64,000 nucleotides of DNA, taken from positions 2,789,964-2,853,963 of the forward strand of contig OZ244931.1 in NCBI GenBank assembly GCA_965222215.1, given 5' to 3'. This DNA is from Alphaproteobacteria bacterium. Lineage in GTDB: Bacteria; Pseudomonadota; Alphaproteobacteria; UBA6615. Shown here piece by piece: positions 19,362 through 52,513 of this stretch (position 1 is its first letter; each line of letters starts with the position of its first letter). The notes below the pieces were generated by a model, which made no database searches, had not been told where the DNA came from, and saw only the letters and a program-made list of their open reading frames with translations. Position numbers and translations under genes: made by a program.

Positions 19362-19377
19362 TGTGACGACAATCATA
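19362..19377 (+). promoter_or_regulatory. CRP-type box TGTGAcgacaaTCATA with a class II promoter geometry
   Basis: The box is TGTGA-N6-TCATA. Exactly 21 nt downstream lies TACGTT (19399..19404). The flank g.GGAACGG and the ...CCCTACGTT motif are shared with the box at 44863. Confidence 0.55.
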
Positions 19378-19478
19378 GCGGAACGGTCATTCGTTCCCTA
19401 CGTTGATAGGTGGACAAAGGGTCGCGCCACGCGTGTGGCACGGGCCTACCTGTACAGAGGCACTACGAGGGAACCATC

Positions 19479-19955
19479 ATGCGCTTGAAAACCATTGCGC
19501 CTATCGCAGCCGCTGCCATGCTCCTGACCGCCTGCGCGCAGGACGGCAACCAGAAACAGACAGCGGGTACCGTCATCGGCGGCATCGGCGGCGCCGTGCT
19601 CGGCTCCCAGATCGGCGGCGGGTCGGGCCGCATCATCGCCACCGCCGTCGGCACCATCGCCGGCGCGCTGATCGGCAGCGAGGTCGGCAAGTCGCTGGAC
19701 AAGGCGGACAAGGCCGAAATGCGGCGCGCCGAGCAGCAGGCCCATCAAGCACCGGTGGGCAAGACCATCGAATGGAACAACCCGGATTCCGGAAACTACG
19801 GAACCGTGACCCCGGTGCGCGACGGCCGCAACACCCAGACGGGCGCCTACTGCCGCGAATACCAGACGACGGTGACCGTCGGCGGCAAGCAGGAAGAAGC
19901 GTACGGCACAGCCTGCCAGCAACCCGACGGCAGCTGGAAGATCGTCGAATCCTGA
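19479..19955 (+). CDS. outer-membrane lipoprotein, 17-kDa surface antigen / glycine-zipper family
   Basis: Signal peptide with lipobox (MRLKTIAPIAAAAMLLTAC). Glycine zipper is GGIGGAVLGSQIGGGSGRIIATAVGTIAGALIGSEVG. The C-terminal surface-antigen-like domain reads IEWNNPDSGNYGTVTP...AYCREYQ...ACQQPDGSWKI. A GAGGGA RBS precedes the ATG at 19479. Confidence 0.85.
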   Translation: MRLKTIAPIAAAAMLLTACAQDGNQKQTAGTVIGGIGGAVLGSQIGGGSGRIIATAVGTIAGALIGSEVGKSLDKADKAEMRRAEQQAHQAPVGKTIEWNNPDSGNYGTVTPVRDGRNTQTGAYCREYQTTVTVGGKQEEAYGTACQQPDGSWKIVES

Positions 19956-39588: not shown

Positions 39589-40902
39589 GTGTTCCAGTTG
39601 AATTCGGAATTGCGGATCGCAGCGTTCGGCTGCGCGTTGGTGGCGCTTGTCGCGAGCCCCGCGGTCGGACAATCGACCGAATTGTCGGACAGGGCAAAGG
39701 CGCTGGACGCCAACGGCAACGGCACGCTCGAACGCGAAGAGGCGCGCGGCCCTGTCGCCGCCAATTTCGACACCATCGACAAGGATGGCAGCGGGTCCCT
39801 CGACGGGGCCGAAATTGCCGCGTTTTTCGGTGGTGGCGGACCGCCTCCTGCGACTGTTGTCGTCGACGAAGTGGTCCGTGAGAACATCGGACAGACCACG
39901 CCGGTCATCGGAAGGTTTGTCGCACGGCAGGCAGGCCCGATCGCGGCACGCATCGGCGGTCCCGTGATCGAGATGAATGTGGATGTCGGCGACCGCGTGA
40001 CGGAAGGAACAATCCTCGCGCGTCTCGACCAGGAGAGGCTGGAACTCGAGCGCGACCGCTATGCGGCGATTGTGGTTCAGCAAACCGCAAATCTTACGGG
40101 AGCCCGCGCGGACCTCGCGAAACGGCGCAACGAACTCAAGCGCCTGGAGGGCATTCGCGACTCGGCCGCGTTCTCGAAGGCGCGGTATGACGATCTGGTG
40201 CAGGACGTGGCCGTGCAAAGCGGACAAGTTGCGGAGACGCAGGCCCAGCTCGCACAGGCCGAAACGCAGTTCAAACGCGCCGAGCGCGATCTGACGGATT
40301 CTGAAATCCGCGCGCCTTTTGCCGGCGTCGTCAGCGAGACCCACACCGAAGTCGGGGCCTACCTGTCGGTCGGTGCACCTGTCGTTACCGTCATCAACGA
40401 CCGGTATCTCGATATCGAGGCGGACGTGCCAACCGCTCGATTGGCCGGCATTGAAAAGGGATCGTCAATCACGCTTCGCCTGGACGACGGCACCACCGCC
40501 AAGGCAAAGGTGCGCGCCATCGTGCCGGACGAAAATCCGCGCACGCGCACGCGACCGGTCCGCTTCACGCCGGAGGTCGAAGGGCTGGACCGCGAATTCG
40601 CCGACAACCAGAGCGTCACCGTTCTGATCCCTGTCGGAAACGTGCGGGCCGCCACGACCGTCGCGAAGGACGCGATCATCGAGCGCGGCGGCAAGATGAG
40701 TGTGTTCGTCGCGCGCGATGGCGCGGCCGTCCCCACACCGGTGACGGTTGGAGACGGCACGGGCGAACGGTTTGTCGTTCTCAGCGGCCTCGAGCCGGGC
40801 GACCGGGTCGTGATCCGCGGCAACGAAGGTCTGCGGCCCGGACAACGTCTGAACATCATCACGCAGGGAAACACGCCGGCGAACGGCCGAAGCGGAGGCT
40901 GA
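39589..40902 (+). CDS. RND efflux periplasmic adaptor (membrane fusion protein) with an N-terminal EF-hand pair
   Basis: After the signal/anchor come two canonical EF loops, DANGNGTLEREE and DKDGSGSLDGAE. The MFP core follows (IGGPVIEMNVDVGDRVTEGTILARLD, coiled coil, IRAPFAGVVSE). GTG start. Confidence 0.88.
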   Translation: MFQLNSELRIAAFGCALVALVASPAVGQSTELSDRAKALDANGNGTLEREEARGPVAANFDTIDKDGSGSLDGAEIAAFFGGGGPPPATVVVDEVVRENIGQTTPVIGRFVARQAGPIAARIGGPVIEMNVDVGDRVTEGTILARLDQERLELERDRYAAIVVQQTANLTGARADLAKRRNELKRLEGIRDSAAFSKARYDDLVQDVAVQSGQVAETQAQLAQAETQFKRAERDLTDSEIRAPFAGVVSETHTEVGAYLSVGAPVVTVINDRYLDIEADVPTARLAGIEKGSSITLRLDDGTTAKAKVRAIVPDENPRTRTRPVRFTPEVEGLDREFADNQSVTVLIPVGNVRAATTVAKDAIIERGGKMSVFVARDGAAVPTPVTVGDGTGERFVVLSGLEPGDRVVIRGNEGLRPGQRLNIITQGNTPANGRSGG

Positions 40903-40906
40903 TCGC

Positions 40907-43900
40907 ATGAATCTGATCTCCAGCTCGATTCACCGGCCCATCGCGGTCATTGCCGTCGTGGTCATGGTCATCATGTTCGGCTGGGTCGCGTTGCAGCGAA
41001 TCCCTATCCAGCTCGCGCCGGATGTCCGCCAGCCGGTCATCATTGTCGACACGTCCTGGCCCGGCGCCTCCCCTCTTGAGGTCGAGCGGGAAATCGTCAA
41101 CCGCCAGGAAGAGGTGCTCAAGGGCATCGAAGGCGTGCGCAAGATTGAAAGCCGCGCACGGACCGGGCGCTCCGATATCACGCTTGAGTTCAGTCCCAGC
41201 CAGAACATGGACCGCGCATTGCTGCTGGTCGCCAATCGTCTGGACCGGGTGACGGGGTATCCCGAGGAAGCCGACGAGCCGACCCTGCGCACCTCGGGCA
41301 CCGACGACAATGCGATCGCCTGGTTCATCCTGACCCGCGCCGAAGGCAACGATCGCGACATGATCACCTACGGCGACTTCCTGGAGGACGTCGTCCAGGA
41401 GCGCATCGAACGGATCGCTGGAATTTCAGGCGTCAATATTTTCGGCGAAACCGAACGCGAGATGCGGATCGTCGTCGATCCCGAGCGTCTGGCCCAGTAC
41501 CGCATGACCGTCGAGGATGTCGTGACCCGGCTGCGCGCCGAGAACGCCTCGACCTCCGGCGGCGACGTCGACGAGGGCAAACGCAGCTACGTCGTGCGCA
41601 CCGATGGTGATTTCACGAATGTGGACCAGGTCTACGAGATTGTCCTGCGTTCGGATGCCGACCTCGGCGACGGCCGTATCGGCCGGATCACGGTGCGCGA
41701 TATCGCCGATGTCGAACTCGCCTACAAGAAGGCGCGGGCATTGCCGCACAAGTTCGACAGCCGTGCGATGGCATTCAACATGACCCGGGAACAGGGTGCC
41801 AACGTCCTGTCGGTCATGGACGCGGTGCATCGGGAGATCGCCGACCTGGCGGAAGGCCCGCTGCGCAGCGTGGGTCTGCTGGTGGAGAACGTTTACGACG
41901 AGACGCTCTACGTCAATTCCGCGATATCGCTCGTCCAGCAGAACATCGTCGTCGGCGGCATCCTCGCCGCGCTGATCCTCATGCTGTTTCTGCGCTCGTG
42001 GCGCCCCACGCTCGTGGTCTCTCTTGCGATTCCGGTCTCGGTCGTCGGTTCTTTCGTGGCGATGGCCGCCCTCGGGCGCTCACTCAACGTTATCAGTCTC
42101 GCCGGAATCGCCTTCGCCGTCGGCATGGTCGTCGACGCGGCGATCGTGGTGCTGGAAAACATCTACCGGCTGCGTCAGGAAGGCCTGTCCCGTTCGGAAG
42201 CGGCCTACAAGGGTGCATCGCAGGTCTGGCCCGCCGTCCTTGTCTCGTCCCTCACGACCGTGATGGTTTTCATCCCCATCCTGATCATGGAACTCGAGGC
42301 CGGCCAGCTTTTCCGCGATATCGCCGTCGCCATATCGGTCTCGGTCCTGCTGTCCCTGCTGGTATCCGTGACGGTCATTCCGGCACTGGCGAACCGGCTG
42401 CTTGTCGGCAGTACGGCCGAGGGCGGCAAACCCATGCGGCTTCCGGTCGTCGATGATTTCGCCCGCGGCTTTGTCGCTTTCTGGCAAAACTTCACGCGCC
42501 TGGTTGTGCGCTCGAAACCGCTCGCGCTGGGTGTCGTGGCCGCCATCACGCTTGCGTCCGCATTGTTCACGGTAAGTCTGGCGCCGAAGCTCGACTATCT
42601 GCCCACGGGTAACCGGAACTTCGTGTTCGGCTTCGTCAATGTGCCACCGGGCTACAATCTCGACGAGGTGAACACGATCACGGAGCGAATTGCCGAGCGT
42701 ACCCGGCCGCTCTGGGCCACCGAAACCGGCCCCGAATCGGAGCCGGGAGCGCCTCCCAAGTTCGAGCGCTTCATGCGGGTGCCGTTTTCCGGCCGGGCGT
42801 TCATTGGCGGGACGGCCACCGATCCGAACCGTGCAGCGGAACTCGGCCCGATTCTTGAGGAGGCCGCCGCGCAGGAACCGGGAACGCGGGCGTTTGCGCG
42901 TCAACCCTCGCTTTTCGGGCGTTCCGTCGGGAGCGGGCGGTCTATCGATTTCGACATACGCGGCTCCGACCTTCAGACGGTTTACGACGTCGCCGGGGAC
43001 GTGTTCCAACGCCTCCAGCAGGTGGTTCCCTTCAGCGAGGGGCATCGCACGCGGCCGATTCCAAGTCTCACCTTGTCGGCTCCCGAAGTGCGCGTCGCAC
43101 CGAACCGGGTTCGGCTCGCCGACAACGGACTTTCCGCGCGCTCCCTGGGACAGTCTGTGGACGCATTCAACGACGGCATTCGCGTCGCCGAAATCACGGT
43201 GGACGGCAAGCGCATCGATCTCACGCTGATGGGGCCGCAGGACATGGTGGGCCAGACCCAGGGAATCGGATCCCTGCCGGTTGTCACCCGCGACGGACGG
43301 ATCGTGCCGGTCGAAGGTCTCGCCGATGTGCGGATCACATCGGGTCCGACGGAAATCCGGCGCGCCGACAGGTCCCGTACCGTCACGCTCCAGATCACGC
43401 CGAACGCCCAGATGCCACTGCAGGAAGCTCTCGAAAAAATCGAGTCGGAAGTCGTCGAACCCATGGAGGCAGAAGGATTGCCCAGCGGGGTCACGTTCCA
43501 CCTGACGGGCACGGCCGACAAGCTGCTTGAGACCTGGAACGAGATGGTCATCGACCTGCTGCTGGCGATTGTGATCGTCTACCTGGTGATGGCCGTCCTG
43601 TTCGAGAGCTTCATCTACCCTTTGATCATCATCCTCACGGTCCCCGTCGCGGCGGCAGGCGGGATCGCCGGGCTGGCGATCCTCAACCTGGGGGTCAATC
43701 AGCCGCTCGACATGCTGACAATGCTTGGCTTCGTCATCCTGACCGGGATTGTGGTGAACAACGCCATCCTGCTGGTCCATCAGACCCTCTATCACATACG
43801 CGAAGACGGACTTTCGGCTGACGACGCCATCATGCGCGCGACCCAGAACCGGGTCCGGCCGATCTTCATGTCCACGCTGACATCGGTCTTCGGCATGCTG

Positions 43901-44080
43901 CCGCTGGTTGTGTTCCCGGGTGCCGGCTCGGAACTGTATCGGGGCCTCGGCTCCGTCGTGCTGGGCGGTTTGTCCCTGTCGGCCGTGCTCACCTTGGCGA
44001 TTGTGCCGCCTATGATGTCCATCACAGTCGGCTGGCGCGAACGCGGCGATAACACGCCACCCGCGGCCCCCGCCGAATAG
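40907..44080 (+). CDS. RND efflux permease (AcrB/AcrD/AcrF family)
   Basis: 1057 aa with 12-TM RND architecture. Begins MNLISSSIHRPIAVIAVVVM, with GIAFAVGMVVDAAIVVLENI and the C-terminal half GFVILTGIVVNNAILLV. Confidence 0.95.
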   Translation: MNLISSSIHRPIAVIAVVVMVIMFGWVALQRIPIQLAPDVRQPVIIVDTSWPGASPLEVEREIVNRQEEVLKGIEGVRKIESRARTGRSDITLEFSPSQNMDRALLLVANRLDRVTGYPEEADEPTLRTSGTDDNAIAWFILTRAEGNDRDMITYGDFLEDVVQERIERIAGISGVNIFGETEREMRIVVDPERLAQYRMTVEDVVTRLRAENASTSGGDVDEGKRSYVVRTDGDFTNVDQVYEIVLRSDADLGDGRIGRITVRDIADVELAYKKARALPHKFDSRAMAFNMTREQGANVLSVMDAVHREIADLAEGPLRSVGLLVENVYDETLYVNSAISLVQQNIVVGGILAALILMLFLRSWRPTLVVSLAIPVSVVGSFVAMAALGRSLNVISLAGIAFAVGMVVDAAIVVLENIYRLRQEGLSRSEAAYKGASQVWPAVLVSSLTTVMVFIPILIMELEAGQLFRDIAVAISVSVLLSLLVSVTVIPALANRLLVGSTAEGGKPMRLPVVDDFARGFVAFWQNFTRLVVRSKPLALGVVAAITLASALFTVSLAPKLDYLPTGNRNFVFGFVNVPPGYNLDEVNTITERIAERTRPLWATETGPESEPGAPPKFERFMRVPFSGRAFIGGTATDPNRAAELGPILEEAAAQEPGTRAFARQPSLFGRSVGSGRSIDFDIRGSDLQTVYDVAGDVFQRLQQVVPFSEGHRTRPIPSLTLSAPEVRVAPNRVRLADNGLSARSLGQSVDAFNDGIRVAEITVDGKRIDLTLMGPQDMVGQTQGIGSLPVVTRDGRIVPVEGLADVRITSGPTEIRRADRSRTVTLQITPNAQMPLQEALEKIESEVVEPMEAEGLPSGVTFHLTGTADKLLETWNEMVIDLLLAIVIVYLVMAVLFESFIYPLIIILTVPVAAAGGIAGLAILNLGVNQPLDMLTMLGFVILTGIVVNNAILLVHQTLYHIREDGLSADDAIMRATQNRVRPIFMSTLTSVFGMLPLVVFPGAGSELYRGLGSVVLGGLSLSAVLTLAIVPPMMSITVGWRERGDNTPPAAPAE

Positions 44081-44822: not shown

Positions 44823-44862
44823 ATTATTGAATTTGCTGGGAAACGAAAGTTTTTCGACCGCT

Positions 44863-44878
44863 TGTGACGCCCGTCACT
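44863..44878 (+). promoter_or_regulatory. CRP-type box TGTGAcgcccgTCACT with a class II promoter geometry
   Basis: It lies 41 nt after the crp-like stop. TACGTT sits exactly 21 nt downstream (44900..44905). The 19-mer TGTGACGCC(C/T)GTCACTGTG recurs at 50693. Confidence 0.65.
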
Positions 44879-44955
44879 GTGGAACGGAACCTTCGCCCCT
44901 ACGTTATGGGTGCGACGACGGGATGTCGTCCAGCACCGAGCGGAAGGGAGAACCC

Positions 44956-45051
44956 ATGTCACGGCAAACACGCATCAACCTGGCAGCACTGATTTTGGCG
45001 CTGCCCCTGGTCGTCGCGATGGTTGAAATGACACTCCCCTCAGGGCTCTAG
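44956..45051 (+). CDS. micro-ORF encoding a single-pass membrane peptide (31 aa; 42 aa if started at 44923)
   Basis: A strong GGAAGGGAG RBS lies 6 nt before the ATG. The peptide is MSRQTRINLAALILALPLVVAMVEMTLPSGL. It lies downstream of the CRP box and upstream of a terminator hairpin. Not in the track (<60 aa as a stand-alone ORF). Confidence 0.45.
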   Translation: MSRQTRINLAALILALPLVVAMVEMTLPSGL

Positions 45052-45102
45052 CTTCCCTCGGCGCACACTTCGCATTCATCCCAACCTCCTCCATGGACTT
45101 GC

Positions 45103-45136
45103 GGCCGGTCTCTCACGAGACCGGCCATTTTCTTTG
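45103..45136 (+). terminator. rho-independent terminator
   Basis: Stem GGCCGGTCTC, loop TCAC, stem GAGACCGGCC, followed by ATTTTCTTTG. The T-tract is present only on the + strand. Confidence 0.75.
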
Positions 45137-45146
45137 TCCAGAAAGG

Positions 45147-46667
45147 TCAGAATTCCCAGCGGCGGCTCACGCCGACGGCGAAGCGGTAGTTGTTGTAGGA
45201 GAAGTTCGTGATGTTCGAGAGTTGGCGGTAGGCCTCTGCGCTCAACGTAAACGTCAGGTCTTCGAGTACCCTCGGCACATCGTCGCCGATCGCGGACACC
45301 GGAATGCCGTAGGTCAGCCGCAAACGGCCGAACTTGTCGCTACGCGTGTCGGTGGCAACCGACGGGTCGTTCCGGTCGTACCGGTCATGTCCGATCGTCA
45401 GCGACGTCAGCAGGAAGTCCCCATCCTCGAAGAGCCAGGTGTGCGTGGCCGCAAGCTGGTCGCGGTCGAAAGAATTGAACGCGCGCGAGGCGATCGTGCG
45501 GCCCCGGGTAAAACTCGCGCGCAACCGCTGGGTCGTGTCGAGTACCTGGCTGAAACCCAGCTCGAACTGATAGCTGCGCCCGCTTCTCTGGGTGGCCGTC
45601 GTGTTGCCGGTGATGTTGTTGTAGTACTGGTACTTTGCCTGGGCTTTCCCGAAGACGCCAAAGGTGTTCGAGACATCGCGGTTCCAGTCCAGCGATGCAC
45701 CCTTGGCGACCAGGTACTTCTCACGCGACAGCAGCACGTTTTCGTAGAGGATACGGGGCGTGAAGGTGTCCGGCGCGAAGTCGAGTTCGAACCCGAAATC
45801 CGCGCTGATGGCCTGCAGGTCGAGATCGTCCTGCTGGATCTGCTCACCCTGGTAGTAGACCACTCCGCCGACCATCATGTGGCGCTTTTGCGCACCGAGA
45901 TCGTGCTCGAAGGACAATTGCGCCAGCCCGTTGATCGAGAGGTCGTCGATCCGCGCCGACGTCCCGGACGTGCGCGTCGGCAAACCGAATGCCAGCCGGG
46001 TCTCGGACTTCGGGGACGCGTTCCGGTTCCAGTCATACTGGCCCGAAAGGTTCACGGCGAAGACGAACTTCGTGACCTTGCGGCGATTCTGGATTTGTTC
46101 GAGATAGCGGTCGATCTGCGCGCGCAGGTCGTCCGGCATGTCCAGTTCGCGGACCGCCAGAAGCTCGCGCTCGGCTTCATCCAGGTTGTCGAGGCGGAAC
46201 AGCACAATGGCGAAAAGCACGCGCACGGTCGCCAGATCGGGGCGGATCAACAGGATCCGCTCCAGAGTCGCGCCCGCTCCGCGCACATTTCCTTCGCGAA
46301 TCTGAGTCAGCGCGTAGCGAAAATTCAGATCGATATTGTCGGGGTCGGCCAGGACCTGCTGATAGGTCACTGCGGGGCCGTCACCGAATGTATTCAGGTC
46401 GAGGGCGTCTTCGGCCGCACGGTCGATCTCTTCCGTGCGTTCGATTTCTTCCTCGACCTCGTCGCCACGCTCCTCGACGCCCGTCTGCTGGGCAAGCGCC
46501 GGCGACGCCAGAAATCCGGCGATCAGACAGGCCAACCCGAAACTGCCATACCGGACGCGCCAGCCGAAAGCCGGCGCGTCTCCTTGCGAAAGGAAAACCA
46601 GTGAATGCCCCCAAGATTGAACGGGAATAAAGCACGACGGATCGCGGCGGAGCAAGCAAAGGCGCAT
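45147..46667 (-). CDS. outer-membrane protein: N-terminal TPR region plus C-terminal beta-barrel (tentatively DUF560/Slam-like)
   Basis: Hydrophobic signal segment ends ...GLACLIAGFLASPALAQQ. A TPR-like helical region follows (LNFRYALTQIREGNVRGAGATLERILLIRPDLATVRVLFAIVLFRLDNLDEAEREL). About 310 aa of alternating beta pattern then start at FVFAVNLSGQYDWNRNASP and end SNITNFSYNNYRFAVGVSRRWEF, with a terminal aromatic. It sits 20 nt downstream of the cyclase gene. The exact start is uncertain. Confidence 0.7.
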   Translation of the reverse strand: MRLCLLRRDPSCFIPVQSWGHSLVFLSQGDAPAFGWRVRYGSFGLACLIAGFLASPALAQQTGVEERGDEVEEEIERTEEIDRAAEDALDLNTFGDGPAVTYQQVLADPDNIDLNFRYALTQIREGNVRGAGATLERILLIRPDLATVRVLFAIVLFRLDNLDEAERELLAVRELDMPDDLRAQIDRYLEQIQNRRKVTKFVFAVNLSGQYDWNRNASPKSETRLAFGLPTRTSGTSARIDDLSINGLAQLSFEHDLGAQKRHMMVGGVVYYQGEQIQQDDLDLQAISADFGFELDFAPDTFTPRILYENVLLSREKYLVAKGASLDWNRDVSNTFGVFGKAQAKYQYYNNITGNTTATQRSGRSYQFELGFSQVLDTTQRLRASFTRGRTIASRAFNSFDRDQLAATHTWLFEDGDFLLTSLTIGHDRYDRNDPSVATDTRSDKFGRLRLTYGIPVSAIGDDVPRVLEDLTFTLSAEAYRQLSNITNFSYNNYRFAVGVSRRWEF

Positions 46668-46687
46668 AGGCCTAAGCTACTGAACTC

Positions 46688-48940
46688 TCATTTCGTTTCA
46701 GCGACGTAGACGCCGTCCCAGCCCGGCGGCGGCGGGTCGAACGAATACTGCGAAATCCGCTCGGCATAGAGGTCGTAGAGTTCCTTGATCGCGTCCGGCA
46801 GGTCGAGGCACTCGTTGAGCGCCGCCTGCGCACCATCCCAGTCAGCCGACCTGTAGGCGGTCAGCATGCGTTCGTGAGCCTCGCTCAGGGCCACGAATTC
46901 CGGCTCCGCTGCTTTTTCCGCATCGCCCATCAGCGCGAAAATATGCACGGCCTCGCTCTTTCCCTTCACCGCAATCAGGTCGAGCTCCAGAAAGGCGAAC
47001 TCGTCCACGACCGCGGCGCGCGTCGTCTCTCCCACGACGATCAGCGCGCCGTAGTTCTTCGACTGCCCTTCCAGCCTGGCCGCGAGGTTCACGGCGTCGC
47101 CGAGCACGGAATAGTCGAAGCGCTGGTCGGACCCCATGTTGCCGACCACGCACTCACCCGAATTGAGCCCAACGCCGACGCCCACCATGAAGGCATCGGG
47201 ATCCTCCGCCTTGCGCTCTTCGTTGACCCGGTCCAGGGCGGCAATGACCGCGAGCCCGGCTTCGCAGGCATGCCGGGCATGGTGGGGATCGTCGAGCGGC
47301 GCGTTCCAGAACGCCATGATGCAATCGCCCATGTACTTGTCGATCGTACCGTTACGATCGAGGATTTCACCCGTCAGCGGCGTCAGAATGCGGTTGATGA
47401 GGGCCGTGAGGCCCTGCGGATCGTCACGGTGGGCCTCGGAAATCGCGGTGAAGCCGCGAATGTCGGAGAACAGCAGGGTCATCTCGCGGGTCTCACCGCC
47501 GAGCCGCAGGCGATCCGGTTCCTCGGCAAGCTGCTCGACAAGTGCGGGCGACAAATACTGGCCGAATGCCGAACGGATCTGCCGGCGCTGGTTCTCTGAA
47601 TTCAGGAAGTTGATCAGCGAACTGGACATATAGACCAGCAGCACCACGACCGCCGGATATATCGGGTCGATGAGGATGCGCGAATTGGTATAGGCGAACC
47701 AGCCGACGGCGATACCAATGGCGATGGCGACGATCGACACCAGCGCCCCGGCCGTCGCGCCGAGTTTCGGGAGCAGCAGGATCAGGAAGATGCCCAGCAG
47801 CGCGAAGGCCGAAAGCTCCGCGCCCAGGGTCCAGTCGGGCCGGGTCAGGAACGTATCGGTCAGCATCTGCTCGATCAGTTCGGCGTGCACCTCGACCCCG
47901 GGAATGATGGGATTCAGCGGCGTCGAGCGCAGGTCGAGCAGGCCCGGCGCGCTCGTCCCGATCAGCACGATCGCGCCTTCGAGCCTGTCGGCCTGGGTGA
48001 TCGGTTCGTCCGCGGACCACAACCGCCAGGCCGGCAGGTAACGCTCCGGTTTGTAGCCCGTGTAGTGCAGCCAGACATGGCCCTCGCCGTCCGTCACGAC
48101 CGGCACCTGGCCGACGCTGACGCTGGAGATCCCCGTCGCGGCACCCCCTTCACCGCTCGCGTCCGACATCTTGATCCGGTACGCCCGCGCGCCCTGCGCG
48201 ACGCGCAGCGCCTCCGCCCCGAGGGTCGGGTAGAGCGCGGGGAGCGCGAAGGGGTCCGTATAGTCGGGCTCGGTGCCGGGCGGCACATACTGGGTGAAGA
48301 TCGGCACCCGGCGGATCAGCCCGTCGATTTCCGAGGGAAAGTTGATGTTGCCGAGCCCCGCCGCCGCCTTGTCGAGGATCGGCAGGTTCGAAATCGCGGC
48401 CCGGTTGACCGGCAGGAACAGGTGCGGCGGCGTGCCCCCTATCGCGACGCCCGCCTTCGGCGCCGGCGGTCCTGTCGTGTTTTGCGATTGGGAGAAGGTG
48501 AAACCGGTGACGACCCGCCCGCGCGCGAACGCCTCGGCCAGCGCCTCGTCATGGTCGGGCAGCGCCTCGACATTGACCCGCAGGGCCTCGCCCACCGCGC
48601 CTTCCGGCCAGGCGGACAACACGTTCCGCGGCGACGTGCGGTCCGGCTCGGCGAACAGCACGTCGAACACGACCACGGCCGCGCCCTCCTCGTGGAGGCG
48701 GTCGACAAGGCTCGCGATCCGCGTTCGCGGCCACGGCCACTGCCCGATCTCGGCCAGGCTGGCATCGTCGATATCGAGAATACGTACCGGCAACTGCTCG
48801 AAATGGCGCGGCTCGATCCGCTGGTAGGTGTCGAACGTCCACCAGCGGACAAGCTGCACCGGCGTTGGGTCCTCGATCCGGACGAACAGCGCCAGAAGCA
48901 GGATAACGATCGGTATCAGGCGGGATTTCCATGCACGCAT
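46688..48940 (-). CDS. CHASE2-sensor class III adenylate cyclase
   Basis: An N-terminal TM helix is followed by a ~330-aa periplasmic CHASE2-like domain (ILDIDDASLAEIGQWPWPR, VVVFDVLFAEPD) and three TM helices. The cyclase domain reads MTLLFSDIRGFTAISE, DKYMGDCIMAFWNAP and RFDYSVLGDAVNLAARLE. An ~85-aa helical tail follows. Confidence 0.9.
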   Translation of the reverse strand: MRAWKSRLIPIVILLLALFVRIEDPTPVQLVRWWTFDTYQRIEPRHFEQLPVRILDIDDASLAEIGQWPWPRTRIASLVDRLHEEGAAVVVFDVLFAEPDRTSPRNVLSAWPEGAVGEALRVNVEALPDHDEALAEAFARGRVVTGFTFSQSQNTTGPPAPKAGVAIGGTPPHLFLPVNRAAISNLPILDKAAAGLGNINFPSEIDGLIRRVPIFTQYVPPGTEPDYTDPFALPALYPTLGAEALRVAQGARAYRIKMSDASGEGGAATGISSVSVGQVPVVTDGEGHVWLHYTGYKPERYLPAWRLWSADEPITQADRLEGAIVLIGTSAPGLLDLRSTPLNPIIPGVEVHAELIEQMLTDTFLTRPDWTLGAELSAFALLGIFLILLLPKLGATAGALVSIVAIAIGIAVGWFAYTNSRILIDPIYPAVVVLLVYMSSSLINFLNSENQRRQIRSAFGQYLSPALVEQLAEEPDRLRLGGETREMTLLFSDIRGFTAISEAHRDDPQGLTALINRILTPLTGEILDRNGTIDKYMGDCIMAFWNAPLDDPHHARHACEAGLAVIAALDRVNEERKAEDPDAFMVGVGVGLNSGECVVGNMGSDQRFDYSVLGDAVNLAARLEGQSKNYGALIVVGETTRAAVVDEFAFLELDLIAVKGKSEAVHIFALMGDAEKAAEPEFVALSEAHERMLTAYRSADWDGAQAALNECLDLPDAIKELYDLYAERISQYSFDPPPPGWDGVYVAETK

Positions 48941-49086
48941 GCCAGCAATCTATCTCATGCCCAGACGCCGACCCAAGAAATCTTCGACCCATTGAGAATC
49001 GTGGACAAGCCTTCCTCATCGCCCACCGGGCTCGTTACTCATGTGAGGTGTTGACGCAACCCGGACCGACGCCTAAGCCCTTGGGT

Positions 49087-50649
49087 ATGGTTAGTTATTC
49101 CTTAAAGCGATTCTCCGCCTTCCCGGTTGCGGTAGGCCTTCTCACGATGGCGTCCGGAACATCTCTTTACGCTCAGGGCAGCGAGCAGGCCGGTGTCGCC
49201 GGCGCCGTGCGCGGCGATGTCACCCTGGTGGCGGCGGTCGCGGCCCAGACCCGGGTCGTCGGCGAGAAGATGGGCAGCGGCGACAAGATATTCCTCGGCG
49301 ACGAAATCTCGACCGGCCCGAACTCGGGCATGCAGGTGATGCTGCTCGACGAGACGATATTCACCATCGGCCCCAACGCCGGTCTGGTGATCGACGAGTT
49401 CGTCTACGACCCGGCGACGAACGCCGGCCAGGTGACGGCATCGGTCGTGAAAGGCGCGTTCCGGTTCGTGTCCGGCAAGGTCGCCAAGGAAGAACCCAGC
49501 AAGATGAACGTGAAGACGCCGGTCGGCACCATCGGCATTCGCGGCACGTCGGCGGCCGGGGTGGTCACCCTGCCCGAGCCCGGGGATCCGAACGGCACGA
49601 TTTCCGGCACCTTCGTGCTTCTCGGGCCGGGCGCGGACAACAACGCGGGCGAACGCGCGGGCCGCATTCTGATCACCAACGGCGGAACGACGGTCGAGAT
49701 CACCCGCTCCGGCTTCGGCACGATCATTTCCAGCCCCGACGTCCCCCCGGGGACGCCGGTGCGCCTGGAGCCCGCGCAGGTCGCGGCGCTGACGGCCGCG
49801 CTCGGCACCGACGGCAGCGCGCGCCCGAACAACGACAACGATGGTCAGGGCGAGGGACAAAACGGCCAGAGCGGCGGGGGCAACCAGAACCAGGGGGGCG
49901 ACCAGCAAGCTGGTACCGGCCAGGGTTCAGGTTCATCAGGTGGCGGCACGACAGGAGCGGGGAGCAGCGGACTGGGGCAAGCAACAAATCTGGCCGGCCA
50001 GAATCTCGGGGAAGGCGTCACCAATGCCAACCTGCTCGGACAGATCGCCGGCACACAGAGTAGTGCGAATGACGAGACGTTTGAGGCGGCCGAAGACAGC
50101 GGTACGACATCCAACGTCAACACAGCGGTCGCCACCTTTGACCAGTTGCGGTCGGTGACAACCGGCACCGCGACGTTCAATTTCGGCACAATCCCGCTGC
50201 TGTACGCAGGCGGGGCGCACACGGACAGCGGCGGCAGCTTCGACGCCCAGGCGTTCATCGACTTCGGCGCGCAAACGCTCGACCTGCAGATTGCCAACAT
50301 CCAGTATGAGTTCGATCAGGACGGCAGCGGAAGCAACGCTTCCCTGATCGGCGCCGGCGGCCCACAGATGTTTGTGTTCACGCCGGACGGGGACGACCCG
50401 TTCGACAACACGACCTACCAAAACGACAACGGATTCGTTTCCGGGACCTGGGACTCCCAGGTCGACACGGCCAACTTCTCGACCCCGCCGACAGACGGGT
50501 CGCACGCCGTCATCTCTGCGTCGATTCTCAACGACATTGAAAATAACGTTGTAGCGTCTCAGGGCGTGGTCAGCATGACGATCAGCGACGCCAACAGCGA
50601 CACCGTGATCGTCGGCGGCGGCGTGGCGGCTGCCACAGCAGCGGACTAA
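49087..50649 (+). CDS. secreted FecR-domain protein, paralog 1 (FecR-like domain + Gly/Asn/Gln linker + C-terminal beta-rich domain)
   Basis: Signal peptide is MVSYSLKRFSAFPVAVGLLTMASGTSLYA-QG. The FecR-like core reads VRGDVTLV...GDKIFLGDEISTGPNSGMQVMLLDETIFTIGPNAGLVIDEFVY...VKGAFRFVSGKV...VKTPVGTIGIRGTS. I chose the ATG at 49087; the track start is 48931. Confidence 0.8.
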   Translation: MVSYSLKRFSAFPVAVGLLTMASGTSLYAQGSEQAGVAGAVRGDVTLVAAVAAQTRVVGEKMGSGDKIFLGDEISTGPNSGMQVMLLDETIFTIGPNAGLVIDEFVYDPATNAGQVTASVVKGAFRFVSGKVAKEEPSKMNVKTPVGTIGIRGTSAAGVVTLPEPGDPNGTISGTFVLLGPGADNNAGERAGRILITNGGTTVEITRSGFGTIISSPDVPPGTPVRLEPAQVAALTAALGTDGSARPNNDNDGQGEGQNGQSGGGNQNQGGDQQAGTGQGSGSSGGGTTGAGSSGLGQATNLAGQNLGEGVTNANLLGQIAGTQSSANDETFEAAEDSGTTSNVNTAVATFDQLRSVTTGTATFNFGTIPLLYAGGAHTDSGGSFDAQAFIDFGAQTLDLQIANIQYEFDQDGSGSNASLIGAGGPQMFVFTPDGDDPFDNTTYQNDNGFVSGTWDSQVDTANFSTPPTDGSHAVISASILNDIENNVVASQGVVSMTISDANSDTVIVGGGVAAATAAD

Positions 50650-50692
50650 CGCAAACCGCGGTTTTCCAGTCTTTCCAACAAAAACTTCGCCA

Positions 50693-50708
50693 TGTGACGC
50701 CTGTCACT
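50693..50708 (+). promoter_or_regulatory. CRP-type box TGTGAcgcctgTCACT with a class II promoter geometry
   Basis: It matches the 44863 box at 18 of 19 positions of the 19-mer. TATTTT sits exactly 21 nt downstream (50730..50735). It lies between the two FecR-domain paralogs. Confidence 0.65.
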
Positions 50709-50760
50709 GTGCGATCCGCTGCGCGTGCCTATTTTGAGGCTGCAACAATGGAGACGCACG

Positions 50761-50889
50761 ATGACCTTTCAGGCACCTCACACGTCCGCACGTAATATTC
50801 GATACAGTTTCCTCGCCGTGACCGGTCTCACTGCGGGGGCAACGGCGGGCCTGCTTGGCACGTTGCTGTTGGCTGTGGCGGCCCTGTAG
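50761..50889 (+). CDS. micro-ORF encoding a single-pass membrane peptide (42 aa)
   Basis: A GGAGAC RBS lies 6 nt before the ATG. The peptide is MTFQAPHTSARNIRYSFLAVTGLTAGATAGLLGTLLLAVAAL. It is about 19 nt downstream of the predicted CRP-dependent TSS and 43 nt upstream of paralog 2. Confidence 0.4.
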   Translation: MTFQAPHTSARNIRYSFLAVTGLTAGATAGLLGTLLLAVAAL

Positions 50890-50932
50890 ACGCCCGCGCG
50901 TTTTCAGTCACCGCCTGCTTCGAAGGTCCAAC

Positions 50933-52513
50933 ATGCCCCGGATAAATCCCGCAAAAACCGCGCTCATTCTGTGCAGCCTAATGACCGTGCCCGCGGGCGC
51001 CCTTGCGCAAGATGGCGGCGAGCTTGCGGGCGTCGCGGCCGCCGTGCGCGGCGATGTCACGCTGGTGGCCGCCCTGCCCGCAACCGGCGGCCGCGTAGTC
51101 GGTAAGAATCTCGGCAGCGGCGACAGGATTTTCCTTGGCGACGAGATCGAAACCGGCCCGGAATCGGGCATGCAGATCATGCTGCTCGACGAGACCATAT
51201 TTACCATCGGGCCGAGCTCCGGATTGATTATCGACGAATTCGTCTACGACCCCGCCACCAGCGCCGGCAAGGTCACCGCCTCCGTGGTCAAGGGCGCGTT
51301 CCGGTTCGTCTCGGGACGCGTGGCGAAGGAAGAGCCGAGCAATATGAACGTGCGCACGCCAGTCGGCACCATCGGCATACGCGGCACGTCCGCGGCCGGC
51401 GTCATCTCGCCCGCCGACCCAAACGATCCCGCCAGCCCGCTGACCGGCACTTTCGTTCTGCTGGGGCCCGGCGTGGACAACAATGCCGGCGAACGCGCGG
51501 GGCGTATTCTCGTCACCAACGGCGGGACAACGGTCGAAATCACCCGCTCCGGCTTCGGCACGGTGATCGCCAGCCCGATACTGCCCCCCGGGACTCCGGT
51601 TCGCCTCGAACCCGCGCAGGTCGCCGGCCTGACGGCCGCACTCGGCACGGATGGCGGTGCGCGTCCGCAGCAGGGGGGTGACAATACCCAGGGTTCGGAC
51701 AGTCCGGATGGCGGCGGCTCCGGAGGTTCCCGGAACGATAGCGGCGACGACAATCAGAATCAGGACAATCGAGGCCCGGGCGGAGAACAGGCAAACTCTG
51801 GCACCGCGCCCGGTCCGAACCAACAAGGCGCGCCAGCCGGAAGGCCCTCGGAGCGCATCGCGGGTGTCGACGCAGGCCAGGTCGCCGCGCTCACCGGACA
51901 GAATCTTGGCTCCGGGGCGACAGATGCCCGGTTCCTCGGTCGGGTCGGCACCGCGCAAAACGAGGCGAACCAGCAAGTCCTGGAGGCAGCCGAAGATGCA
52001 GGTATCGCGAGCACCGCCGTGGCCACCGCGATCAGCACGTTCGACCAGCTCCGGCTAATCCAGACCGGTACTGCAACATTCGATATGGGCAATATCTCGC
52101 TCAACTTCCTGAGCGGATCGCACACCAACAGCGGCGGGTCCTATAACGCCAACGCCGTGATCGACTTCGGCGCGCAGACTATCGATCTGAACATTTCAAG
52201 CGTGACCTACTTCTTCAACGGTGGGAACGCCCAGAGTTTTGCTTTCGACCCCGACGCGAACACCGGCGGAGGCGCGCTGGACTCCACCTATGCGAATGAT
52301 TCGGGTTTCGTCGCCGAAACCTGGACGACCAACAACAACGCGGCGAATTTCACGACCGCGCCGACCGACGGCGCATCGGTCCAGATTTCGGCGGCAATCC
52401 TCAATGATGTGGATGCCGGCGTGATCGCCGCGCGCGGTTTCGTGACCATGCGAATCCAGGAAAACGGTGGCGATACAGTGATCGGCGGGTCCGGTGTGGC
52501 CGAGCGCCAGTAA
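50933..52513 (+). CDS. secreted FecR-domain protein, paralog 2
   Basis: Signal peptide is MPRINPAKTALILCSLMTVPAGALA-QD. Its three-part architecture and FecR-like core are near-identical to paralog 1. I chose the ATG at 50933; the track start is 50855. Confidence 0.8.
   Translation: MPRINPAKTALILCSLMTVPAGALAQDGGELAGVAAAVRGDVTLVAALPATGGRVVGKNLGSGDRIFLGDEIETGPESGMQIMLLDETIFTIGPSSGLIIDEFVYDPATSAGKVTASVVKGAFRFVSGRVAKEEPSNMNVRTPVGTIGIRGTSAAGVISPADPNDPASPLTGTFVLLGPGVDNNAGERAGRILVTNGGTTVEITRSGFGTVIASPILPPGTPVRLEPAQVAGLTAALGTDGGARPQQGGDNTQGSDSPDGGGSGGSRNDSGDDNQNQDNRGPGGEQANSGTAPGPNQQGAPAGRPSERIAGVDAGQVAALTGQNLGSGATDARFLGRVGTAQNEANQQVLEAAEDAGIASTAVATAISTFDQLRLIQTGTATFDMGNISLNFLSGSHTNSGGSYNANAVIDFGAQTIDLNISSVTYFFNGGNAQSFAFDPDANTGGGALDSTYANDSGFVAETWTTNNNAANFTTAPTDGASVQISAAILNDVDAGVIAARGFVTMRIQENGGDTVIGGSGVAERQ

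Follow-up and report, generated by a model that had tools for sequence, protein, structure and literature searches.

Downstream of a gene for a Crp-like regulator, in a stretch of 64,000 nucleotides from contig OZ244931.1 of an uncultured alphaproteobacterium represented by assemblies alone (this whole stretch is the window in what follows), lies a CRP-type box, TGTGAcgcccgTCACT, which we refer to as box 1. We consider it likely, from its sequence, its position and its conservation in relatives, that box 1 is the operator of this adjacent CAP-type Crp regulator and that it serves a class II-type, activator-dependent promoter of a small transcript. As a cis-element, the site adds one more example of a textbook mechanism. 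The new part is a conserved, unannotated micro-protein/small RNA (sRNA)-like gene that is linked to the regulator.

Direct reading of box 1 gives TGTGA at 44863-44867, the spacer cgcccg, and TCACT at 44874-44878, bearing out the claim of a first-pass annotation of this DNA that the site matches TGTGA-N6-TCACA at 9 of 10 positions. The sequence TGTGA-N6-TCACW is found at two places in the window, 44863 and 50693, against an expectation of 0.15 from dinucleotide shuffles. The 19-mer of box 1 likewise has its second copy at 50693 with a single C/T difference, as the same annotation had noted, for an expectation of 0.01. A relaxed scan of the window that allowed 2 mismatches was uninformative, with 16 matches against 15 expected; because this is the chance level, only near-perfect sites (at least 9/10) were taken as meaningful. 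Twenty-one nucleotides (44879-44899) separate box 1 from TACGTT, a candidate -10 hexamer of the form TAnnnT, for which the background is 0.002 per position in a window of 65% G+C. The centre of box 1 (44870.5) is thus 29.5 nt ahead of the start of TACGTT, and this corresponds to position -41.5 if the hexamer spans -12 to -7. The 21-nt gap and the class II geometry previously proposed are therefore exact in the window, and they are kept ungapped in relatives (see below). When the region 16-18 nt upstream of TACGTT was searched for a -35 element, the best candidate matched TTGACA at 2 of 6 positions, and a scan with the sigma-70 consensus found no self-sufficient promoter in the box 1 region. 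The presence of a -10 element without a usable -35 element suggests that the promoter is activator-dependent. An A/T-rich tract upstream of box 1 could act as an UP-like element for the C-terminal domain of the polymerase alpha subunit.

Further evidence comes from a comparison of related loci. A profile was built from 25 homologues of the Crp-like protein, and 80 loci were retrieved from species-representative genomes, 79 of them usable. Nearly all come from Rhodospirillales-like alphaproteobacteria, with protein identities of 52-90%. A box was counted if it matched at 9 or more of the 10 positions and lay between -5 and +300 relative to the stop codon of the Crp-like gene. Such a box follows the gene in 39 of the 79 loci, at a median distance of 45 nt. 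Cultured relatives with the box include Caenispirillum bisanense, C. salinarum, Aestuariispira insulae, Ferruginivarius sediminum and Novispirillum. The density after the gene is 1.69 boxes per kb; the rest of the loci, 1.2 Mb in all, has 0.013 per kb, which makes the enrichment approximately 129-fold. The objection raised with the initial claim, that the motif might be no more frequent than expected by chance, accordingly fails both within the window and across the loci. Boxes were present in 4 of 5 loci at 80% identity or more, in 7 of 11 at 60-80%, and in 28 of 63 below 60%; counting 8/10 boxes as well added eight loci. These sequence data indicate that linkage of the box to the regulator gene is common, not universal.

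To compare the promoters themselves, an ungapped stack of 40 box-bearing sequences was made, with the box as anchor. The stack shows little or no variation in TGTGA and TCAC, while the six central positions of the box vary, favoring C/T-G/C on the left and G/A on the right. TCAC is followed by A or T and then by G in 32 of the 40 sequences. The next 20 columns are nearly free of information, after which conservation returns: column 38 is T or C in 33/40, column 39 (position -11) is A in 35/40, and column 43 (position -7) is T in 32/40, giving the hexamer the form yAnnnT. A and T columns four positions apart, at a fixed 21 nt from the box, constitute the -11A/-7T signature of a -10 element and place the box centre at -41.5. 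It is this register, without a single gap, that upholds the class II assignment of the first-pass annotation across the relatives. The column of the predicted start is a purine in 27/40 and the preceding column a pyrimidine in 33/40. Columns -16 to -8 upstream of the box are A/T-rich across the 40 sequences (for example, A/T in 38/40 at -11). The pattern of conservation indicates that the box and the -10 element are held by selection in the class II register.

The unit downstream of box 1 had been suggested to be a very short one with a micro-ORF (a small open reading frame, ORF) and a terminator, and we find both in the window. Comparison extends this description to the relatives: at 34 of the 40 loci with a box, the predicted start is followed after 62-266 nt by a terminator classed as strong (dG no higher than -14 kcal/mol). 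The unit occurs in two forms. The long form, present at 21 loci including that of the window, measures 202-266 nt and contains an ORF of 29-33 codons preceded by a Shine-Dalgarno sequence. The short form, present at 13 loci (Caenispirillum, Novispirillum and others), measures 62-133 nt and contains no ORF. A hairpin within a few nucleotides of the predicted 5' end and a CU-rich motif are common to the two forms. The hairpin is found at the same place in most relatives with its pairing kept and with different letters in the stem (GUGUGGCGA/UCGCCACAC in L001, CCGGC/GCCGG in L003, and CCGGG/CCCGG in Caenispirillum); its stability has a mean z of -1.25, with z below -1.5 in 17/40. A motif of the CCUCC/CUCCC type lies within 45 nt before the terminator in 29/35 loci as opposed to 12.7% of control windows. 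Identity within the 3' untranslated region (UTR) is 0.69-0.78, above the 0.51-0.60 found at third codon positions of the ORF. In the window, the convergent gene has its stop codon 10 nt past the point at which the terminator closes the unit. The small unit shares this terminator with the upstream operon, an arrangement like that of sRNAs that derive from the 3' end of an operon and have their own promoter. Consensus folding of the whole transcript in two clades recovered the terminator only, with a covariation term of -0.29, and so provided little signal. Pairing of the CU motif in the 3' UTR with the Shine-Dalgarno sequence of micro-ORF 1 as a means of self-sequestration was considered and rejected, its duplex energies being no better than with shuffled UTRs (mean z of 0.07; z below -1.5 in 1/23).

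Predicted ORF-less transcripts of 70-109 nt were also noted individually at seven loci from Caenispirillum, Novispirillum and their relatives (L018, L020, L025, L034, L044, L080 and L031), approximately 45-140 nt past the box. Each consists of a 5' hairpin, a near-identical (GGUAUCGG)UAUCCUCUUUCCCUCAAGAGCG, and a terminator, and scores below the Rfam gathering score.

Micro-ORF 1, the ORF of the long form in the window, specifies a peptide with a basic N-terminus followed by one hydrophobic span. When loci at which no strong terminator was detected are included, a homologous ORF of 29-33 amino acids with a Shine-Dalgarno sequence is present at 23 of the 40 loci with a box; at one more it is truncated by the end of the contig. 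The encoded peptides align with one another and share a core, K/R-A-L/F-x-L/V-A-L/V-P-L, inside the hydrophobic span. The ratio of nonsynonymous to synonymous substitutions (dN/dS) is 0.15-0.45 in all 15 within-clade pairs, and identity follows the order second, first, third codon position (0.85-0.89, 0.65-0.73 and 0.51-0.60, respectively). Together, the Shine-Dalgarno sequence, the conserved length, the dN/dS values and the codon-position pattern indicate that micro-ORF 1 is a coding gene, conserved under purifying selection, and its translation is predicted. In the public annotation of the contig (L081), the gap of approximately 300 nt at 44823-45146 is empty and micro-ORF 1 is not called. 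The exact peptide was not present in a collection of 15 billion proteins, in which a few relatives are listed, named only 'hypothetical protein', and the peptide had no match in NCBIfam. The possibility that micro-ORF 1 is an AcrZ-like partner of the neighboring efflux pump of the resistance-nodulation-division (RND) family was set aside because the peptide is retained at more distant loci even though the nearest 10 kb there contain no pump.

We also examined whether the small transcript belongs to a known RNA family. When the window and 19 loci related to it were searched with Rfam at gathering thresholds, the only matches were to tRNAs and a cobalamin riboswitch elsewhere, and no sRNA family was detected. 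Below the thresholds, the best match at 45069-45141 was suhB/MmgR (RF00519), with 24.5 bits compared to a gathering score of 41. Either suhB or ar15 gave the best Rfam match at the matching site, both for the window and for each of the six relatives examined, with 22.7-28.7 bits against thresholds of 40-41; the RF00519 scores in five relatives were 22.7-27.9 bits. Membership in RF00519 (alpha-r8) was rejected because all scores fall below the gathering threshold. Like MmgR/alpha-r8 and alpha-r15/AbcR (RF02345), which are grouped in clan CL00108, the small transcript has a (U)CCUCCC-type motif, predicted to be single-stranded, right before a GC-rich terminator; unlike them, it scores below the 40-41 bit thresholds, and it is the CU motif and the terminator that account for most of its match. 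NtrC and AniA control MmgR, which is not known to be under Crp.

The regulator encoded next to box 1 consists of a cyclic nucleotide-binding domain and a Crp-type helix-turn-helix, based on Pfam matches. The first-pass annotation had pointed to retained RE..R residues in this protein, and these are indeed present, as R191-E192-T193-V194-A195-R196. This recognition helix, RETVAR (residues 191-196), is invariant in the 25 homologues and aligns with RETVGR of E. coli CAP (R180-E181...R185). Helices of the CAP type read TGTGA, whereas the helix of Clr, RPKVNR, reads another motif (PMC10187061). Alignment to CAP also revealed equivalents of the residues that contact cyclic AMP (cAMP), namely E83 (E72 in CAP), R92-S93 (R82-S83) and S136-T137 (T127/S128). 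The nearest solved structures are those of GlxR and Mycobacterium tuberculosis Crp (approximately 1e-21), followed by Clr (7pza; 6e-17) and CAP (4e-12). The Crp protein MGR_1896 of M. gryphiswaldense may be a relative; PMC4754748 defines no binding site for it. The Crp-like gene starts 43 nt past the pump gene. A box-like sequence with a 9/10 match, TATGATGTCCATCACA, was observed at 44011-44026, within the last codons of the AcrB-type pump gene and 105 nt upstream of the Crp-like start codon. It might be a promoter for autoregulation. It is kept in L001 and L002, which is confounded by coding constraint (it encodes PMMSIT), and its hexamer at +21, GATAAC, is poor.

We propose the following model for the locus. 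A rise in a cyclic nucleotide would cause the regulator to bind as a dimer to TGTGA-N6-TCAC; the nucleotide is probably cAMP, produced by cyclases such as the CHASE2 enzyme encoded two genes away. The dimer, bound at about -41.5, would recruit RNA polymerase to a promoter with a -10 element and no usable -35 element, with transcription starting near 44912. The product, approximately 220 nt long, would end at the 45103-45135 terminator and encode a single-span membrane peptide of 31 residues. In its 3' part, the single-stranded CU motif and the terminator hairpin would present the layout of the alphaproteobacterial sRNAs that carry an anti-Shine-Dalgarno sequence. We thus read the small unit as a Crp-activated small mRNA and perhaps also a regulatory RNA. 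The regulator probably also activates two further targets, the box 2 unit (micro-ORF 2 and a FecR gene) and a lipoprotein gene behind the site at 19362, both described below. Binding by the window protein, its dependence on cAMP, activation as opposed to repression, the exact start of transcription, translation of micro-ORF 1, and any action of the RNA in trans are all inferred from sequence.

A broader proposal can be made more tentatively, and we hold it with somewhat less than even confidence. It is that the small transcripts form an uncatalogued RNA family tethered to its own Crp-type regulator: a Crp-activated sRNA with an anti-Shine-Dalgarno seed, which would have a dual function where a peptide of 31-33 amino acids has been gained or kept. 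The same proposal holds that the family is widespread in Rhodospirillales-like alphaproteobacteria and that the peptide occurs in one large lineage that includes the window genome.

Several points weigh against the operator and promoter assignment, or against parts of it. About 40% of the orthologous loci are without even an 8/10 box after the gene, and the sRNA-like tail reaches no Rfam gathering score. The activating region 2 (AR2) of CAP, made up of H19, H21, E96 and K101, provides the class II-specific contact with the N-terminal domain of the alpha subunit in E. coli. These residues are not conserved in the window protein, the equivalents of E96 and K101 being S106 and T111 and the H19/H21 region being unalignable; hence the geometry is that of class II, but the contacts with polymerase need not match those of E. 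coli. A terminator scan found no terminator between the Crp-like gene and box 1, so read-through from the RND-crp operon could also yield RNA that contains micro-ORF 1. Lastly, other Crp/Fnr paralogues with an affinity for the box may exist elsewhere in the genome. Were this the case, the neighboring gene might not encode the regulator of box 1 at all. Several Crp/Fnr proteins are usual in Alphaproteobacteria, with more than 10 in S. meliloti (PMC10187061), and the window covers 64 kb of a genome of approximately 4 Mb. We nevertheless regard binding by a paralogue encoded elsewhere as unlikely. The box stays beside the Crp-like gene across relatives at 54-90% protein identity and in very different neighborhoods, for which a regulator-target pair is the simplest explanation, and the window protein has exactly the helix that reads TGTGA.

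The continuity of the operon with box 1 also raises the possibility that the Crp-like protein binds the site to opposite effect, as a repressor, as a roadblock to read-through from the RND-crp operon, or in control of the operon from its 3' end. Operon transcripts would run through the site, given that no terminator separates it from the Crp-like stop codon, and in enterobacteria, CRP represses the dual-function RNAs known to be under its control, Spot 42, AzuCR and VcdRP (PMC12612679). A roadblock, however, needs neither a -10-like A and T at a fixed distance of 21 nt, such as are kept in 32-35 of 40 loci, nor a matching geometry at box 2 and at the third site, which lies between divergent genes. 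A site at -41.5 without a -35 element is the classical arrangement for an activator, and we judge repression or roadblock very unlikely. That box 1 is not bound by any protein, being either a palindrome of chance origin or a hairpin in the 3'-terminal part of the crp mRNA, might be suggested by its 3' intergenic location and by the ability of GTGAC and GTCAC to pair as a 5-bp hairpin. Neither a chance palindrome nor an RNA hairpin would give a box with a -10 element at a fixed distance. In addition, the box is over-represented in the window (2 copies against 0.15 expected) and locally enriched 129-fold across 79 loci; the 6-nt spacer varies freely between half-sites whose letters, TGTGA and TCAC, do not change, whereas a hairpin would keep pairing instead of identity; and no T-run follows the box. 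The comparative data have in effect already refuted this explanation. A final alternative concerns micro-ORF 1, which might be a mere leader peptide in an attenuator that governs read-through of the terminator into a downstream gene. It is indeed a short ORF followed by a terminator, and some relatives, such as Caenispirillum, have a gene on the same strand past the terminator. The relatives with such a gene, however, are the ones without the ORF. In close relatives, and in the window with its minus-strand gene at 45147-46667, what comes next is a convergent gene, leaving nothing to attenuate, and an attenuator was rejected for the window on this account; furthermore, the peptide sequence is under purifying selection and its length is held at 29-33 amino acids. 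We therefore give the attenuator very little credence. The reading of box 1 as the operator of an activator-dependent promoter is the one that we carry forward.

Coordinates of the features at and around box 1, and of the other sites and genes discussed, are given in the table.

Table. Features of the window, with positions counted from its first nucleotide.
Feature	Position	Strand	Sequence or basis
Third site	19362..19404 (box 19362-19377)	+	TGTGAcgacaaTCATA, then 21 nt, then TACGTT; 9/10 match
Membrane-fusion protein of RND pump	39589-40902		RND efflux operon
AcrB-type pump	40907-44080		RND efflux operon
Crp-like regulator gene, 232 aa	44124..44822	+	PF00027 7e-21, PF13545 3e-12
A/T-rich tract	44846..44854	+	aaagttttt; 9-17 nt upstream of box 1
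CRP-type box 1	44863..44878	+	TGTGAcgcccgTCACT; 9/10 consensus positions
Candidate -10 hexamer of box 1	44900..44905	+	TACGTT; 21 nt past box 1
Predicted transcription start	44912	+	G; seven nt past the hexamer, from geometry
5'-end hairpin	44914..44930	+	GACGAC-GGGAU-GUCGUC; fold prediction
Micro-ORF 1, 31 aa	44956..45051	+	MSRQTRINLAALILALPLVVAMVEMTLPSGL; Shine-Dalgarno GGAAGGGAG at 44942-44950
CU-rich motif in 3' UTR	45080..45092	+	CCCAACCUCCUCC; anti-Shine-Dalgarno-like; unpaired in minimum free energy fold
Intrinsic terminator	45103..45135	+	GGCCGGUCUC-UCAC-GAGACCGGCC then AUUUUCUUU; stem-loop 45103-45126 and T-run
TPR-containing protein, 506 aa	45147-46667	-	Convergent with the small unit
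CHASE2-domain class III nucleotide cyclase	46688..48940	-	CHASE2 3e-57, Guanylate_cyc 3e-21 (Pfam)
FecR-domain protein, first of two	48931-50649	+	
CRP-type box 2	50693..50708	+	TGTGAcgcctgTCACT; TGTGA-N6-TCACW scan
Candidate -10 hexamer of box 2	50730..50735	+	TATTTT; 21 nt past box 2
Micro-ORF 2, 42 aa	50761..50889	+	Hydrophobic C-terminal half rich in Gly/Ala; first gene past box 2
FecR-domain protein gene, 526 aa	50933..52513	+	PF04773 3e-8; 43 nt past micro-ORF 2

The geometry of box 1 is not restricted to a single site, with box 1, box 2 and the third site all having TAnnnT at exactly +21. The hexamer past box 2 had gone unnoted in the first-pass annotation. The geometry of box 2 is kept in two relatives, L015 (TGTGACCCCCGTCACT, 21 nt, TAGATT) and L004 (TGTGACCCCTGTCACT, 21 nt, TAGGTT). 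These same two relatives have 42-residue homologues of micro-ORF 2, the sequence of which is present without a name in the protein collection. Based on the spacing, the FecR gene that follows micro-ORF 2 is probably co-transcribed with it from the box 2 promoter. At 12831-12861 of L004, two overlapping boxes, TGTGACGCCCGTCACT and TGTGACCCCTGTCACT, 15 nt apart, precede the micro-ORF 2/FecR unit, and tandem boxes 23 nt apart occur in L061 and L063. Several further perfect boxes with the matching 21-nt geometry were found at other places in distant loci. The third site is situated between two divergent genes, a pdxH-like gene and, 75 nt downstream, an ORF for a glycine-rich, lipoprotein-like product (19479-19955). 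Eight of 76 metagenome loci have a counterpart with a match of at least 9/10 ahead of the homologue, while approximately 190 kb of flanking sequence contained none. The right half-site of the third site, TCATA, recurs before the homologues in those 8 loci.

The gene content around the box differs among the relatives. The RND pump is found upstream only in the clade with at least approximately 60% identity. The island of CHASE2, TPR and FecR genes (45147-52513 in the window) is present in the window, L001, L004, L007 and L015, and missing in L003, L006, L008 and L065. In loci without the island, the box and micro-ORF are followed directly by an HpcH-type aldolase gene, which in the window follows the island. 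Pump and island being variable, the conserved core is the regulator gene together with its box and the small transcript. The block of CHASE2, TPR and FecR genes resembles an inserted or deleted island. The nearest solved structure to the CHASE2 cyclase is the adenylate cyclase CyaB of P. aeruginosa, and the lysine that specifies adenine is kept in the motif IDKYMGD. The CHASE2 enzyme is thus likely, from its sequence, to be an adenylate cyclase and a source of the effector. No CRP-type box with a match of 8/10 or better was found between the cyclase gene and the first FecR-domain gene. The longest ORFs of these two genes overlap by 10 nt at their starts (48931-48940), from which it follows that at least one true start codon is internal. 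The membrane-fusion protein of the RND pump has an EF-hand-like match at residues 60-81, with four EF-hand Pfam models all below their cut-offs.

Comparison with known systems places the promoter close to the class II promoters of E. coli, such as galP1, at which the CAP site is at -41.5 (Busby and Ebright, as cited in PMC4681086 and PMC10127613). As in these promoters, a site of the TGTGA-N6-TCACA type would replace the -35 element, and the regulator has an RETVxR helix and the residues that contact cAMP. The -10 element begins 21-22 nt past the site in E. coli class II promoters and 21 nt past it in the window. The window differs in that its regulator does not conserve the AR2 residues, its -10 element is of the yAnnnT form, and its type of site has a conserved G just past TCAC[A/T] (32/40) in place of the A/T-rich flank of CAP sites.

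A second point of comparison is Clr of S. meliloti, which clusters with the CHASE2 cyclase gene cyaD1 and the FecR-domain gene smc02177, the latter carrying a Clr box (PMC5498481); smc02178 is also part of the system. From sites 42-76 nt upstream of starts, Clr activates smc02177, many genes for small or exported proteins, and one sRNA gene, SMelC181 (PMC5498481, PMC10127613). The window similarly has a CHASE2 cyclase gene, two FecR genes, one of them preceded by box 2, and a gene of the TPR/outer membrane-like type. The regulators are nevertheless different in kind: the helix RPKVNR and the site HGTYHC-N4-GRWACA characterize Clr (PMC10187061), whereas RETVAR and TGTGA-N6-TCAC[AT] are found in the window, which argues against a Clr-type assignment. 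The sequence relationship to Clr (7pza, 6e-17) is moderate and weaker than that to the actinobacterial GlxR and Crp. In contrast to the Clr cluster, the CHASE2/FecR island is found only in some relatives, while the core of crp, box and small transcript is widespread. CgrA of R. centenum, like Clr an alphaproteobacterial Crp homologue that sets a precedent for such a mode of action, gives footprints on perfect TGTGA-N6-TCACA sites and is encoded beside nucleotide cyclase genes (PMC4681086, PMC10187061). It prefers cyclic GMP, has RT for RS in the phosphate-binding motif, and has a nucleotide-binding domain that is 17 residues longer (PMC10187061). The window protein, unlike CgrA, has RS and neighbors a predicted adenylate cyclase.

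The small transcript can be compared to the CRP-controlled RNAs Spot 42/SpfP, AzuCR and VcdRP, which are short, some having a peptide of 15-30 amino acids and a base-pairing region (PMC8916003, PMC12612679), and to CyaR, which is cited in PMC10127613 as being activated by CRP. It resembles these gamma-proteobacterial RNAs in being a short, terminator-bounded transcript with predicted control by Crp. It differs from the dual-function RNAs among them in that there is no sequence relationship, activation is predicted in place of repression, and the gene is linked to the gene for its regulator.

Cyclic nucleotide signaling in alphaproteobacteria is understood in few cases, those of Clr and CgrA, and its direct targets are mostly unknown small genes. 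The site described here uncovers a micro-protein gene that gene callers overlooked and an sRNA-like module that is lacking in Rfam, both linked to the regulator. The consensus derived here (wGTGAyS-N4-SrTCACwG, a gap of 21 nt, then yAnnnT) is usable for regulon prediction in a large group of marine and freshwater bacteria, most of them uncultured. Were the RNA to act in trans, it would represent a post-transcriptional arm of cAMP control outside the gamma-proteobacteria. If the transcripts do constitute a family of Crp-activated sRNAs, this family would be an alphaproteobacterial counterpart of the CRP-CyaR and CRP-Spot 42 circuits, and part of the cAMP response in these bacteria would be post-transcriptional.

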